DNA of 58,958 nucleotides, counting the filler, from Basidioascus undulatus (lineage: Eukaryota): NCBI GenBank assembly GCA_000826855.1. It is 5 parts of 5 records of this genome, joined end to end, with 100 filler letters (N's around TTAATTAATTAA, not from the genome) between each part and the next. Parts side by side here need not be neighbours in the genome. Positions count along the whole stretch, not along the records: positions 19,067 to 28,970 come from JTLS01001197.1; 4 more parts are not named here. One strand, 5' to 3'. The notes beneath the pieces are model-generated. The model was not told where the DNA came from, ran no database searches, and saw only the letters and a list, made by a program, of their open reading frames with translations. Position numbers and translations under genes: made by a program. The stretch's first letter is position 1, and every line of letters starts with the position of its first letter. Below, in pieces: positions 21,530 through 26,757 of this stretch.

Positions 21530-21543
21530 GGATTTTGAAAATC
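21530..21543. terminator. Putative bidirectional 3'-end signal G-GATTTT-G-AAAATC
   Basis: Perfect dyad in the 21-nt gap between two convergent stop codons. The same 12-mer recurs, inverted, at 26746-26757. Confidence 0.55.
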
Positions 21544-21548
21544 AATCC

Positions 21549-23144
21549 TTAGATCCGTTCCTTGATAAACTTGGCAAGCGCACTCTCGGTACTGGCATCC
21601 GTGAGGTACCCGACGGGGTTCTCCTCGGGCACGCCCTGCTTGTAGAGGGCCAGCATCTTGTCGGCCGCGGACCCCCTGGCGGTGGCAGAGTTGTTGATGG
21701 CATAGTCGACGCTCTTGAGAAGCTTAGCAGGGTCTCCCTGATGCATGGTGGCGATCTCCTCAATAGCGTCCCTCAGCACCTTAAGGCTAGGCATGTCGGA
21801 CTCCTCTATCTCAACGCGCTCGGGCTTAGGGGAGGCAGAGGCCCTGGCAGGTGCTGCAGTACCGGCTCCGAATGGCGACATCGAGAACCCGAGGCCACCC
21901 CTCTTCGTCGGCTGTGGGCGCGGCGGCGAGGCAGGCGCGCTGGATAAGGACGTAGCGGTAGATCTCTTCGTAGGAGTCGAAGGAGTAGTAGACTGATCCT
22001 CAGGGGGAAGAGACATAGTGCGCGACTTGACCGGAGCCGGGCTACCACGGCTGCTCTGCGGGGCACCACCTGAGTACGTACTGCCAGTAGGGGCGGCGGC
22101 CTGGACATGACTGATGTTGGGACCTGGGCGGGCGCCTATCGTAGACGCGGCAGACGAAGCCACGGAGTAGTCGGCGTACTGGATGCGCTTTGCGGTGGTA
22201 AGGATATCCCTCCTCCACCCATTCATGGCTTCGACGAGCTCCTTCGCGGCAGCGGCCAGCTCGGGGTTGCCCGAACCTTCGGCAGCCATGGCCAGTCTCT
22301 TGAGGGGGATCTCGAGGTGATTACCACTAAGGGCAGCGTCGTTGAGTGCGGCACTACAACTGTTGGCAATGTCAAGGGTGGTACGTTTACGAACCTCGTC
22401 AGCCACGGAGGAACGTGACATAGATCCAGGGGTGGCAGAGTCTACCGTGACACTGCCAATAGCCTCACGAAGAGCACTAGAGAATCTCTCAGTGTCGAGA
22501 ACAGCCCTCTGGCTGGTGAGATCTTCGAACTTGCGCGCGATGTACGCGGGGTGGGGCGAGGCGTAGGTGGTGAAGCGCACCATGGGAGACCTGAATGAAC
22601 TCTTGAGGGAGGCAGCCATCCGTTGTGCAGCAGCCCCCATGCATATGAGTTTCACAGGAGCTCCATCGACGTTGGGGGAGGCGTGGAGTAGCTGGCACAA
22701 GGCCTCCACCTGCACGCTTGCCTCCACGAAAGACTCGGGTGTGTTGTGGGGGTAACATACACTCTCGTTCACAAGGATGACACCTGCGTCCACGAGCCGG
22801 AAGGAGTCCCTGAAGGCCGCTGTACCTATCTCCCTGGCAAGGCCCGTGTGATGGTACAGGTCGTTACTGATAACCTGGACACTAGGGGTGGTGGTAGAAC
22901 CCCGTGGGAGCTTCTCTTCTGAGTACGAGAATGGGGCTGCCATCACAGGATAGATATCCCTCCCGTACGGACTCTGCGAGAAGATGATAGCCTTGATCGG
23001 CACTGCCCTGTACCATGAGAGGACGTAGGTGGCCCATCTCTTCGGGTAGTCACTAAGCGCGAAGTAGGGAGTGAATGATTCCATGGCGTCCAGCAGCTCG
23101 TGACTGGCCCTTATGGAAGCCCTCATCACCTCGGGATCAGCCAT
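21549..23144 (-). CDS. Family-1 uracil-DNA glycosylase-like domain fused to a long helical and Ser/Pro-rich C-terminal region
   Basis: IKAIIFSQSPY (cf. VKVVILGQDPY), PFS...TPSVQVISNDL (cf. FS..PPSL.NIYKEL), AGVILVN (cf. QGVLLLN), LICMGAAAQ (cf. LLWGSYAQ) and SPHPAY (cf. HPSP) occur in the expected order. Confidence 0.8.
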   Translation of the reverse strand: MADPEVMRASIRASHELLDAMESFTPYFALSDYPKRWATYVLSWYRAVPIKAIIFSQSPYGRDIYPVMAAPFSYSEEKLPRGSTTTPSVQVISNDLYHHTGLAREIGTAAFRDSFRLVDAGVILVNESVCYPHNTPESFVEASVQVEALCQLLHASPNVDGAPVKLICMGAAAQRMAASLKSSFRSPMVRFTTYASPHPAYIARKFEDLTSQRAVLDTERFSSALREAIGSVTVDSATPGSMSRSSVADEVRKRTTLDIANSCSAALNDAALSGNHLEIPLKRLAMAAEGSGNPELAAAAKELVEAMNGWRRDILTTAKRIQYADYSVASSAASTIGARPGPNISHVQAAAPTGSTYSGGAPQSSRGSPAPVKSRTMSLPPEDQSTTPSTPTKRSTATSLSSAPASPPRPQPTKRGGLGFSMSPFGAGTAAPARASASPKPERVEIEESDMPSLKVLRDAIEEIATMHQGDPAKLLKSVDYAINNSATARGSAADKMLALYKQGVPEENPVGYLTDASTESALAKFIKERI

Positions 23145-24197: not shown

Positions 24198-24249
24198 TTC
24201 ATTGCGGTGAGGGTGAGCGCTCAACTTCAGTTGGTTGCCCACCCGCCCG

Positions 24250-26745
24250 ATGGATAGAGACTCCGCGTTCGGTGCCTCTACATATGCGCGCACGGAGGGG
24301 CGCAACACCACCAGGACGACGAGATCTGCAGTAAGTGGGGCGCAGAAGACTCTCAGTGAATCTCGACCCGAGGTTGCACGCGAACCGCCCACCGGAGGAC
24401 CCCTCTTTAACTCAGCGCTCACCCTACGGAAGGCCTGCCTCGCATATAGGGATGCGGGCGGGAGGGCGTGGGACTACGGTTCTCCCGCGGAGTACGACAG
24501 AGCTCCCAACAAGGCCTCGTTCTATCCTCTCCGCAGGTTCGACAACCCCTTCGGACACATGGTCGAGGGCCACGACGGACACTACACCGTATGCGCGCCG
24601 CCCGTAATGTGTACGAACACGGTCCAGTTTGCAAACTCCCTCACGGTAGCCCTCTCTGCTGCACTATCGAGCGGTACCTTGTGGGACTGCAGGGGTACCG
24701 TGCTGGTATCCAAGACGCGCGAGGGATGGAGTAGCGCAGGGAGGTTACTGCCCCAGACCATCTGCGACTCCCTCGACAGGCTTACGTCTGGCCCACCCGC
24801 CCCCTTGAGCGCGCACATACCTCATGCCGTGTCCGAGACGATGCACAGGGGGAGAACCAGTGCATGTCCTACGCTCTTCGACGTGCCCTCGGAGACGGGG
24901 AGGACACCTGGTCTCTTCGGCACCCTACATTCTAACCAGGCTATCGACATGTCACCCTTGGAGGAGGAGGGGGTACCCGACAGGGAGGCTAGGAAGAGGA
25001 TGCCCTGGCACAAGGGCTTCATATGTGCGGGATACACGTCCCACTCTACGGATGCAGGCAGGTCAGTGCGCGTGTGTCACAAGGTGTCTGTGAGGATATT
25101 CTCGAGGGCAACTCTAGGTGTGGTCACGGGGGCCCTACTGCGGTGCGAGCATGAGGATGGCGAGTGGCTGCTATTCTGTATGGGGGTCATGCTGCGTTGT
25201 AGCGAGGCGACGATAGTGTCGGTCTCCAAGCGCATCCAACAAACCTCGCTAGCCTTCGAGTCGAGGCCTACTGTGCACATCTCGGCCGAGTCCAAGGTGG
25301 CGGTGGTCTCAGTGTCATCGGGCGTTCTAGTCAGACCGAGTGCGGAGTACGGCGCCGTGGACTCCACTTCCCTCCACCGGTCTACGTACCCACCCAGCAC
25401 ACGGGCGCCCAGTATCGGAGCACGGGTGGAGGATCTCTTCTCCACACATTTCAGCCTCATTCCGTTCCTCACTTCAGATAGGCCCCCTAGGACTTTACTC
25501 GCGGCGGTGCAGGGTCCCCAGGCGGTGTGCGCCCCTCACCAGGTGGCATCTTCCCTCATAGCTCCGGTTCATGTGTCCAAGCCGCTCACCTACACGACGA
25601 TGGGCGAGAAGCTGATGAAAGATATGCCTGACGACCCAGAGATAGGCTTGGTGCAATGTCCGCCGGGGGAGGACCTCGTCATGTGTCTGGCAAACTACGG
25701 CGACAACTACGAGGATGCGGTCATGGTCTCCCAGGCGGCCATAGACAGGGGCCTCTTCTCATACACTTCACGAAGTACCCATATCCTCATGGCAAGTGAG
25801 CCGTGTCCCGAGGTAGGGGGAAGAGTACGCATGACCGAGCACCCGTGGTGGAAGTGCTACCCTCGTAGACGTGGGCAGAGGTCATCGCTGGTGAGACACG
25901 TAGGGAAGGACACTGTGTCGCTGGAGGAGTGCGACGGCATCGTAGTCTCGAAGTCCACAACGGCCGCAGGTGACGTGAGGGTAGAGGTAGAGAGGTATGG
26001 GCTTCCGGTCACTGGCGACAAGGTCTCCACCCCTCACGGACAGAAGGGTGTGCTTCGGATATGGTCAGAACACGACATGCCCTTCACAATGGACGACAAC
26101 GAACAGCCCGTGAGGTTCGACGTAGTGATGTCTACCTCTGCCGTGCTCAACCGGGTGACCCTCGGCCAGTACTTTGAGATGTGCTCAGGGAGGGAGGCGT
26201 GCGAGAACCCGCGACCTTCACATCCCCACGGAGCCCCATCGCTGTACGACGCGACCCCGGTCGCGGAGCCTGCCCGAGCGTGTGCCCTGTACGACGGCCG
26301 GACTGGCGAGCTCATTATGGAATCCTCGGGCGACGGGACACTGCCTGTGGCCGCCTCGTGGGGCGTTACCCGAGTATGGCAAATGTCACAGCTGTCATGG
26401 GACAAGCAGCACTACACCCACAACCCCCTGGGCAAGCACTCGCTGGCCCCTCCGGTAGGCCGCTCGAGGGGAGGAGCCGTACGACTCGGGGAGATGGAGG
26501 TGCATGCAATGGCGTCTTCAGGGCTCATCGGGTCCCTCATCGAGCTCAAGAACAGGACTGAAGTAGTGCGCGCACCTGTGTGCTCACGATGCCATAGGAT
26601 GGCGTACTTGTGCACTTGCGAAGGCGAGGGGGTGTTTGTAGACTTCGCACTTCCCCTGGGTACCATAGCCATGGACTGCGTGAGCGCCATCACTAATGGC
26701 CATGCGTTCGAGTATAGCGCATTACCGGAGGGTGAGGGCACGTAG
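24250..26745 (+). CDS. RNA polymerase second-largest subunit (RPB2/beta)-like, compact (831 aa from first ATG), divergent
   Basis: GFICAGYTS, SLIPF..DRPPR...QGPQA, GDNYEDAVMVSQAAIDRGLF, GDKVSTPHGQKG, DMPF, NRVTLGQYFE, GRSRGGAVRLGEME and C-terminal CxxC..CxC are all RPB2 hallmarks in order. Intronless. Confidence 0.95.
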   Translation: MDRDSAFGASTYARTEGRNTTRTTRSAVSGAQKTLSESRPEVAREPPTGGPLFNSALTLRKACLAYRDAGGRAWDYGSPAEYDRAPNKASFYPLRRFDNPFGHMVEGHDGHYTVCAPPVMCTNTVQFANSLTVALSAALSSGTLWDCRGTVLVSKTREGWSSAGRLLPQTICDSLDRLTSGPPAPLSAHIPHAVSETMHRGRTSACPTLFDVPSETGRTPGLFGTLHSNQAIDMSPLEEEGVPDREARKRMPWHKGFICAGYTSHSTDAGRSVRVCHKVSVRIFSRATLGVVTGALLRCEHEDGEWLLFCMGVMLRCSEATIVSVSKRIQQTSLAFESRPTVHISAESKVAVVSVSSGVLVRPSAEYGAVDSTSLHRSTYPPSTRAPSIGARVEDLFSTHFSLIPFLTSDRPPRTLLAAVQGPQAVCAPHQVASSLIAPVHVSKPLTYTTMGEKLMKDMPDDPEIGLVQCPPGEDLVMCLANYGDNYEDAVMVSQAAIDRGLFSYTSRSTHILMASEPCPEVGGRVRMTEHPWWKCYPRRRGQRSSLVRHVGKDTVSLEECDGIVVSKSTTAAGDVRVEVERYGLPVTGDKVSTPHGQKGVLRIWSEHDMPFTMDDNEQPVRFDVVMSTSAVLNRVTLGQYFEMCSGREACENPRPSHPHGAPSLYDATPVAEPARACALYDGRTGELIMESSGDGTLPVAASWGVTRVWQMSQLSWDKQHYTHNPLGKHSLAPPVGRSRGGAVRLGEMEVHAMASSGLIGSLIELKNRTEVVRAPVCSRCHRMAYLCTCEGEGVFVDFALPLGTIAMDCVSAITNGHAFEYSALPEGEGT

Positions 26746-26757
26746 TTTTCAAAATCC
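26746..26757. terminator. Putative bidirectional 3'-end signal TTTTCAAAATCC (GGATTTTGAAAA on the minus strand)
   Basis: Starts immediately after the RPB2-like TAG and overlaps the capping-enzyme TGA; identical to the 12-mer at 21530-21541. Confidence 0.55.

Follow-up and report, generated by a model that had tools for sequence, protein, structure and literature searches.

The window analysed here, a stretch of 58,958 nucleotides (nt) from the Basidioascus undulatus assembly GCA_000826855.1, consists of six blocks with spacers of N between them. Its third block (positions 19067-28970, JTLS01001197.1) is a contig of 9,904 bp, with a GC content of 60.6% and 98% of its length coding, which belongs to a lineage of virus-like elements whose other members are all metagenomic, apart from a single stray contig in a whole-genome shotgun (WGS) record. 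The stop codons of the seven open reading frames (ORFs) of this element contig, g1 to g7, are accompanied by a short A/T-rich motif that recurs at the gene ends of the related elements. We regard it as a real, conserved gene-end motif and as a variant of the known sequence-type viral terminators. Judging from sequence comparisons, it probably serves as a gene-end signal, for transcription termination and mRNA 3′-end formation, in a virus-like element with its own multisubunit RNA polymerase.

The whole contig contains exactly seven runs of four A's or four T's (A4/T4), none of them longer than four and each located at or shortly after a stop codon. A first-pass annotation of the sequence had picked out these runs by eye as the only ones on the contig, and both this count and the strings and positions that it gave for the motif sites proved correct. 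Per kb, the element contig has 0.71 A4/T4 runs, and the remaining blocks of the window have 3.5-5.9. Every one of the seven ORFs has exactly one sense-strand A4, positioned between -1 and +92 nt from its stop codon.

The genes meet at three convergent junctions, namely g1/g2 (18 nt overlap), g3/g4 (21 nt apart) and g6/g7 (3 nt apart), at two divergent junctions (g2/g3 and g5/g6) and at a single tandem junction (g5 to g4). The 21-nt spacer of g3 and g4 encloses dyad 1 (21530-21543, GGATTTTGAAAATC), within which GATTTTGAAAATC at 21531-21543 forms a perfect dyad; the sense A4 is found 11 nt past the g3 stop and 13 nt past the g4 stop. The first 12 letters of this site, GGATTTTGAAAA (21530-21541, plus strand), return as their reverse complement, TTTTCAAAATCC, at 26746-26757. 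This second copy, dyad 2, begins 1 nt past the g6 stop and includes the g7 stop codon, its sense A4 lying 6 nt past the stop of g6 and overlapping that of g7. Both dyads are flanked by GGA and TCC. Site 3 (23179-23190, minus strand), which reads GGTTTTGGAAAC on the strand shown and GTTTCCAAAACC in sense, lies 69-75 nt past the stop of g5, between g5 and g4, the one tandem pair of the contig. Site 4 (19547-19556, minus strand; TTTTGAGAAA, in sense TTTCTCAAAA) follows the g2 stop by 86-92 nt and falls within the coding sequence of g1 on the opposite strand. Finally, at site 5 (19657-19663, plus strand), TAAAACC, the sense A4 overlaps the stop codon of g1. Read in the sense direction, the contig sites comprise TTTTGAAAATC, TTTTCAAAATC (twice), TTTTGAAAACT, TTTCCAAAACC, TTTCTCAAAATA and the single-T form TCTAAAACC.

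The T-then-A order of the motif is self-complementary, so that one copy placed in a short convergent spacer reads alike for both transcripts. A single copy serving both strands of a convergent pair explains the presence of the dyads as well as the shared 12-mer, in agreement with the earlier proposal that the signal works in both directions at convergent junctions.

We then compared the number of A/T runs with that expected under several null models. Base composition alone predicts 24.0 A4/T4 runs on the contig, where seven are observed. Most of this gap is accounted for by codon and amino acid usage, since synonymous-codon shuffling predicts 9.7 runs within the ORFs. Only two are found there, and none of 1000 shuffles gave two or fewer, which bears out the suggestion of the first-pass annotation that the motif is avoided inside ORFs. 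The depletion increases with run length. For runs of two, 228 A runs and 205 T runs were observed, with 245.1 and 202.8 expected; for runs of three, the observed counts were 18 and 15 and the expected ones 27.8 and 28.5; for runs of four or more, they were 0 and 2, with 3.9 and 5.6 expected. G4 and C4 runs within the ORFs, on the other hand, occur at their expectation under the same shuffling (112 observed, 111.9 expected), and the effect on A/T runs is therefore not a general avoidance of homopolymers. In 13 loci that served as controls, each surrounding an archaeal or giant-virus RPB2 gene, the ratio of observed to expected runs ranged from 0.71 to 1.20 for A4 and from 0.20 to 1.69 for T4, and some of the archaeal loci displayed a strong depletion of sense T4 (for instance, 6 observed and 29.5 expected).

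These counts bear on the simplest competing account, in which A/T runs are scarce because the contig is rich in GC and biased in its codons, and those present fall by chance into the less constrained intergenic DNA. The lowering of the expectation from 24.0 to 9.7 by codon and amino acid usage is in line with this account, and so is the abundance of repeated 12-mers on the contig, which are not rare as such (13 seen, 11.6 expected). However, the residual depletion in ORFs was not reproduced by shuffling and spares G/C runs, and both promoter-only intergenic regions lack any A/T run. Furthermore, GGATTTTGAAAA consists of rare letters, with 2.65e-4 further copies expected, and a 12-mer common to two convergent junctions appeared in none of 400 Markov simulations. 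As the motif, its polarity and its position also recur in independent relatives, we consider an origin by chance and composition extremely improbable.

The relatives were found through g6, which encodes a protein like the second-largest RNA polymerase subunit, RPB2. Among 5.8 billion clusters, 14 clear relatives of this protein were present, all of them metagenomic and 29-37% identical, and full-length relatives are encoded on nine metagenome contigs (L001-L009). A search of a genome collection returned one true relative, the 10,116-bp contig BMQF01000065.1 (L161; 50.5% GC), whose RPB2-like protein is 31% identical; the 79 other matches were confined to the C-terminal part of the query and were nearly all archaeal. 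The WGS record that contains L161 as a stray contig is an unrelated bacterial one, its title naming a Streptomyces strain, and L161 presumably represents contamination in that record and not a bacterial gene. In IMG/VR, the scan with the single protein gave no match, and a profile scan gave only partial matches to giant-virus RPB2. A quick tree of the RPB2-like proteins resolved two deep clades, each with a Shimodaira-Hasegawa-like approximate likelihood ratio (SH-aLRT) support of 100: the first comprises the window contig, L001, L003, L004 and L161, and the second L006-L009. The relatives range from 33 to 60% in GC content and come from different samples. Judged by titles and the starts of abstracts, the literature contained no description of this lineage, nor of a viral terminator of the TTTTAAAA type.

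In the 63 nt from the stop codon, the top 5-mer of the window contig, L003 and L004 was TAAAA, present in 15 of 36 windows where 1.36 were expected (p 1e-12); over the same distance in the clade of the window, TTAAAA and TTTAAA ranked after it. When L161 was included, a sense A4 started within 30 nt of the stop at 20 of 40 gene ends (2.1 expected) and within 60 nt at 27 of them (3.9 expected), and none of 20,000 simulations matched these counts. Sense T4 was found at 9 and 12 of the same 40 ends, respectively. Within 60 nt of the stop, three of the seven genes of the contig itself have a sense T4 and five a sense A4. In L161, all five evaluable gene ends carry the motif, as TTTTAAAA (twice), as A9, and as TAAAAC and TAAAAA on the stop codon. 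The TAAAAC-on-stop form, which is that of site 5, recurs in L004, L161 and L007. The second clade also shows an enrichment, with TAAAC following 18 of 51 stops where 2.25 were expected. Taken with the seven out of seven ORFs of the contig, the enrichment in the relatives supports the earlier view that the motif is tied non-randomly to the 3′ ends of genes.

Alignment of 39 instances on their A-run showed a T at positions -4 to -1 in 22, 26, 32 and 27 of them, respectively, and a pyrimidine in 36 at +1 and in 31 at +2. The trailing pyrimidines indicate that the motif is oriented and not merely palindromic. In the clade of the window, its consensus in the sense direction is TTT(T)AAAAYY. The sites of the contig have one to three extra bases separating the T's from the A's and fit this consensus otherwise. 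The form TTTT(G/C)AAAA, with its one-base spacer, which the first-pass annotation had taken for an element-specific signal, is thus a local variant of a lineage-wide motif; with the letters that follow, it reads TTTT(G/C)AAAA(T/C)C.

To compare the different kinds of junction, we counted the motif in sense orientation across the clade of the window, using AAATTT as a control of reversed polarity. The composite motif was present at 16 of 26 convergent gene ends and at 6 of 16 tandem ones. It was found upstream of 5 of the 16 tandem genes, which represents the same intergenic DNA, upstream of none of the 24 divergently transcribed genes, and in 8 of 764 interior windows. The corresponding counts of TTTAAA were 10 of 26, 4 of 16, 3 of 16, 0 of 24 and 8 of 764, while those of AAATTT were 0 of 26, 0 of 16, 1 of 16, 1 of 24 and 8 of 764. 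Related contigs therefore carry a motif of the same kind at their gene ends, and almost never within ORFs or in promoter-only regions.

This distribution also bears on the possibility that the motif is a TATA-like core promoter or initiator, driving the downstream genes at tandem junctions or antisense transcripts at convergent ones. The motif is A/T-rich and TATA-like and, at tandem junctions, precedes the next ATG by 5-60 nt. In the clade of L006-L009, the word AAACATTTAAAC is enriched upstream of starts, and the L003 word AAAATTGA resembles the octamer of the mimivirus early promoter. Against such a role stands the complete absence of the motif upstream of divergently transcribed genes, set beside its frequency at convergent ends, where no gene starts nearby; a promoter would be expected to have the reverse distribution. 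Neither of the promoter-only regions of the contig, g2/g3 (20524-20570) and g5/g6 (24198-24249), contains an A/T run or a copy of the motif. Finally, only 5-9 nt separate the motif from the next ATG in L003 and L007. A promoter function is, in our view, highly unlikely.

Two extended forms of the motif were observed in the relatives. The tandem intergenic regions of L006-L009 contain AAACATTTAAAC as an extended word, 10-15 nt before some ATGs, and this word may be a gene end and a gene start in one. Often in L003, TTG(A/C) comes directly after the A-run; the resulting word, AAAATTGA, lies 3′ of genes (at approximately 3549, 12375, 15136 and 17039).

The first-pass annotation treated the dyads as the unit of the motif. 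Counted without regard to orientation, T-then-A dyads agree with the oriented counts above: among the convergent junctions 8 of 12 have one, among the tandem junctions 5 of 13, and among the divergent junctions 1 of 10. In L003, a stop is found within 50 nt for 8 of the 10 T-then-A dyads and for 1 of the 6 A-then-T dyads. Tandem ends have a sense A4 in 11 of 16 cases and a sense T4 in 4 of 16, with A4 alone at 7 and T4 alone at none. At convergent ends, a sense A4 is present in 18 of 26 cases and a sense T4 in 11 of 26, with A4 alone at 9 and T4 alone at 2. We conclude that the dyad is not the unit of the motif, and that its constant, oriented part is the sense A4 with T's before it and two pyrimidines after it. 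In keeping with this, L003 ORFs are strongly depleted of sense A4 (18 observed, 47.9 expected) and not of T4 (23 observed, 27.5 expected).

A palindromic motif at gene borders could also be the binding site of a dimeric or pseudo-dimeric protein, acting as a bidirectional roadblock or in insulation, replication or recombination. One candidate for such a protein is the product of g2 (19642-20523, minus strand; 293 amino acids), which is conserved in both clades, with homologues at L003:3471-4358, L006:14717-15895, L007:14693-15673 and L008:14642-15742. A structural model obtained from five sequences (predicted local distance difference test score (pLDDT) 76, predicted template-modelling score (pTM) 0.78) displays a fold with two alpha/beta repeats. 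Its sole full-length structural matches are TATA-binding proteins (TBPs), with Z-scores of 6.3, 5.8 and 5.7 over 143-144 aligned residues; the top match aligns 144 residues with a root-mean-square deviation of 3.9, at a Z-score (6.3) below the level of trust advised for the aligner. Foldseek gave probabilities up to 0.98, at low TM-scores, and viral TBP-like proteins were among the weak matches in BFVD. Profile searches of PDB and Pfam with g2 found no match. From this model, g2 is a possible virus-encoded TBP-like factor.

Several other observations agree with a protein-binding site. The motif is palindromic even at tandem junctions (TTTTAAAA in L003, L007 and L161), where one strand would suffice, and TTTAAAAY fits six of the eight positions of the TATA consensus. 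In addition, the assembly unitigs of one sequencing run (X1) break, with a change in depth, exactly at dyad 2. On the other side, the identification of g2 as a TBP lacks support at the sequence level as well as a trustworthy Z-score, and the oriented pyrimidine pair and the many instances with A4 alone favour a strand-specific reading. We therefore find a binding site at gene borders unlikely. A bolder variant would unite both ideas into a new gene-border device of a DNA virus lineage: a TATA-like palindrome bound by g2 would stop the polymerase from either side at convergent junctions, and the encoded A4 would seed the poly(A) tail, so that a promoter-recognition fold would be re-used for termination. 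We think this scheme very improbable.

A search of sequencing runs for the contig listed three that contain it, all of DNA and none of RNA (X1-X3), and these provided further views of the sites. Unitigs from X2, an independent run from another study, span dyad 1, site 3 and dyad 2 with no differences, which indicates that these sites are not artefacts of assembly. In X1, possibly the source run, the unitig at site 3 has two extra T's after 23180, giving T6 where the contig has T4, while X2 agrees with the contig; this reflects either run-length heterogeneity or an assembly difference. Along the contig, the k-mer depths of the X1 unitigs are 318, 904, 132 and 59, with the break at dyad 2 falling at 26742/26760. 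This pattern may reflect segments, ending at gene borders, that the variants have in common. Runs X2 and X3 contained many variants 85-95% like the contig, one of which is missing 23156-24754, with g5 and the beginning of g6. In this deletion variant, inspected by eye and as a single case, the core of site 3, TTTTGGAAAC, is unchanged within the 39 bridging letters, while its flanks differ. Either several related genomes or several copies coexist in the three runs.

The coding content of the contig is consistent with an element that makes its own transcripts. The product of g6 (24250-26745, plus strand; 831 amino acids) is the second-largest subunit of a multisubunit RNA polymerase, matching Rpb2 domain 6 (E-value (E) 2e-16) and carrying the GDKVSTPHGQKG motif. 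Its best solved relatives are RPC2 of Pol III, archaeal RpoB and RPB2 of Pol II. Facing it, g7 (26749-28968, minus strand; 739 amino acids) encodes an N-terminal TFIIS-type zinc ribbon (E 2e-4), a LEF-4-like region (a weak match, E 0.001, below the cut-off) and possibly a C-terminal methyltransferase. Weak as all these matches are, the protein may resemble a capping-enzyme fusion, joined to a domain of the transcript-cleavage type. The convergent pairing of g6 and g7 is retained in L001. The homologue of g7 at L004:14107-16248 has a LEF-5_C match (E 8e-4), which is below the cut-off. The relatives share g2, g4 and g7 with the contig and add further genes, encoding a family-B DNA polymerase (720-750 amino acids), an RPB1-like protein (~600 amino acids), ATPases and a kinase-like protein; the RPB1-like protein of L006 matched Rpb1 domain 2 only. 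We count the polymerase subunit and the capping-enzyme-like protein of the contig, together with the RPB1-like subunit and the DNA polymerase of its relatives, in favour of a gene-end signal read by the machinery of the element itself.

The motif could instead be a cleavage and polyadenylation site of the yeast, plant or protist kind, its U-rich stretch leading into pyrimidine-A and an A-run, at which the nuclear machinery of a host would process the transcripts of some or all of the genes. In yeast and plants, U-rich elements flank a Y(A)n cleavage site, and some protist signals overlap the stop codon. The position of the motif just past the stops, including the TAAAAC copies on the stop itself, would suit such a site, and so would the host-like, eukaryotic appearance of the other blocks of the window. 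Neither strand of the contig, however, contains AATAAA (or TTTTTNT, TATAAA or TATATA), and ATTAAA occurs once, at 19765. A polymerase subunit and a capping-enzyme-like protein of their own usually accompany 3′ ends that viruses make themselves. Moreover, relatives that differ in GC content (33-60%) and in their sample of origin have all kept the motif, and their hosts do not necessarily have one poly(A) code in common. Processing by the host thus seems unlikely to us.

For the gene-end signal that we favour, we propose the following mechanism. The sense-strand unit would consist of a short T-run, A4 and two pyrimidines, placed from the stop codon to ~90 nt beyond it, and a single copy in a convergent spacer of 3 to 21 nt would end both transcripts. 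The polymerase, alone or with a factor, would stop at or just past the motif by reading the sequence and not an RNA hairpin. There, the 8-9 bp RNA:DNA hybrid over the U-run and the A-run would be the weakest possible in a genome of 60% GC, and the terminal encoded A's might also seed the poly(A) tail. A/T runs within ORFs would be selected against because they would lead to premature transcript ends. The position, orientation and conservation of the motif, its depletion in ORFs and its lack of RNA structure are shown by the data above; that transcripts end at it, and by what mechanism, is inferred.

A number of observations weigh against this proposal. The numbers on the contig are small, with seven genes and two runs where 9.7 are expected, and in L004 and L161 the depletion in ORFs is weak. 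The 5-mer test and the test on 40 gene ends take coding sequence as their null, although intergenic DNA is richer in A/T, a concern that the divergent-region control answers only in part. The definition of the composite motif was in part settled once the data had been seen; TTTAAA, which was not derived from the window, is a fairer probe but a weaker one. As the counts above show (16 of 26 at convergent ends, 6 of 16 at tandem ends), some genes end without the motif. ORF calling in the related loci simply took the longest ORF, so that some of their ends may be wrong. At site 4, a sense T4 and an A3 lie within g1, 110 nt before its stop, and g1 would be truncated there if a T-run alone were sufficient. 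In the clade of L006-L009, TTTAAAC occurs upstream of 10 of 26 tandem genes and after 7 of 26 stops, and this similar frequency on both sides makes a promoter role inseparable in that clade. Finally, A4 is very short for tailing based on slippage.

The remaining genes of the contig gave few clues to function. g1 (19069-19659, plus strand) is open at the 5′ end of the contig and overlaps the convergent g2 by 18 nt. g3 (20571-21527, plus strand; 318 amino acids) has no family match in Pfam. g4 (21549-23144, minus strand; 531 amino acids), which is conserved in the relatives, matches the uracil-DNA-glycosylase superfamily weakly (E 0.0012, below the Pfam cut-off), and its structure model is poor (pLDDT 50.3). 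g5 (23259-24197, minus strand; 312 amino acids counted from the first ATG) had been labelled VP39-like in the first-pass annotation; this label found no backing in Pfam, where no family matched even at E ≤ 5, and no homologue of g5 was present in the related loci.

Both divergent regions of the contig contain GC-rich inverted repeats, that of g2/g3 including GGCACAGG...CCTGTGC. In the g2/g3 region, as in the divergent regions L161:6789-6845 and L003:15811-15890, A/T runs are absent and the inverted repeats, all of them GC-rich, include GGTGCC/GGCACC-like words. Such repeats are a candidate for a promoter or an operator in this lineage.

In the other blocks of the window (1-18966 and 29071-58958), only short, exon-like ORFs were found, namely fragments of a major facilitator superfamily (MFS) transporter (50927-52057) and of DPP IV (its N-terminal region, 17691-18341). 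A blastx comparison of these blocks with the proteins of the element and its relatives gave no match, and neither did tRNA and Rfam scans of the window. As noted above, these blocks look like eukaryotic host DNA, and they appear unrelated to the element.

If transcripts do end at the motif, it would represent the gene punctuation of a DNA virus lineage that has so far had neither host nor experiment, and the transcription units of this lineage would be predictable from sequence alone. As a marker, the motif is also cheap to use, both to find more members of the lineage and to tell them apart from host DNA where assemblies are mixed.

We compared the motif with the known signals of transcript ends and related elements. 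Programmed -1 frameshifting was considered because TTTAAAC is a classical slippery heptamer; we rejected it by eye, since the copies follow the stops at variable distance and those on the stop are in the wrong frame. Matches to the consensus of bacterial intrinsic terminators numbered 3, with 4.2 expected, and none was at a motif site or a gene end. The AAUAAA polyadenylation signal is likewise ruled out, given the counts of AATAAA and ATTAAA above.

The Mimiviridae hairpin rule, to which the first-pass annotation had likened the motif, involves A/T-rich palindromes at gene 3′ ends, common to convergent genes, where the transcripts are cleaved and polyadenylated (PMC4402537). The contig resembles it in having an A/T-rich palindromic sequence at 3′ ends that convergent genes hold in common. 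The arms here, however, are only 4-6 nt long with a loop of 0-1 nt, and no stable hairpin is formed. The folding z-scores of the seven contig sites were -2.10, -0.36, -0.99, +0.13, -1.23, -0.28 and +0.90, and 38 instances from the clade had a mean of 0.06, with 1 of the 38 below -2. A hairpin signal can therefore be ruled out, and the likeness does not extend to membership.

The second analogy drawn in the first-pass annotation, with the early terminator of poxviruses, TTTTTNT (U5NU in the RNA), fails as a membership too: this sequence is found on neither strand, and the longest A/T run is four. The likeness that remains is that of a short sequence signal read by viral machinery. Capping enzyme is involved in poxvirus early termination, and the capping-enzyme-like gene of the contig adjoins dyad 2. 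The poxvirus signal acts ~40 nt upstream of the RNA end (PMC7163114).

In non-segmented negative-strand RNA viruses, the gene end consists, in mRNA sense, of an A/U-rich tetramer and an A-run, and the tail is made by stuttering. The motif shares with these gene ends the A/U-rich stretch followed by an A-run at gene borders, and the weak hybrid. Their template, however, is RNA, their runs are of 5-7 and their polymerase is of another class, whereas the motif lies in a DNA template and has a run of only 4-9.

At the late 3′ ends of baculoviruses, the polymerase (LEF-8, LEF-9, LEF-4 and P47) terminates at a T-rich sequence and then adds A's (PMC5988703, citing Jin and Guarino 2000). Both systems have a reduced, virus-encoded multisubunit polymerase, and the T-run followed by A's in the motif would suit an end of this kind. 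The matches to LEF-4 (in g7) and LEF-5 (in the L004 homologue) are weak and below the cut-off. The A's of the present motif, however, are encoded in the genome and conserved. Furthermore, g6 matches Rpb2 domains and not the Pfam LEF-8 family; the search with g6 did return, at rank 28, an ESM Atlas cluster with LEF-8 on 33% of its members.

Finally, the polymerase of African swine fever virus (ASFV) stops at poly(T) with no need of RNA structure, in the manner of Pol III and archaeal polymerases (PMC7163114). These systems and the element have in common a short, plain gene-end signal on the sense strand, without a hairpin, which is avoided in ORFs and which, in the element too, would be recognised by a multisubunit polymerase. 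Their T-runs are of 5-8 or more, whereas those of the motif are of at most four and are followed by a constant A4 and then two pyrimidines. Oligo(T) as the sole signal is excluded, as the runs of the contig never exceed four and T4 alone is found at none of the 16 tandem ends. If our reading is correct, a reduced multisubunit polymerase of baculovirus size would use a signal unlike the plain T-runs of ASFV, Pol III and archaea.

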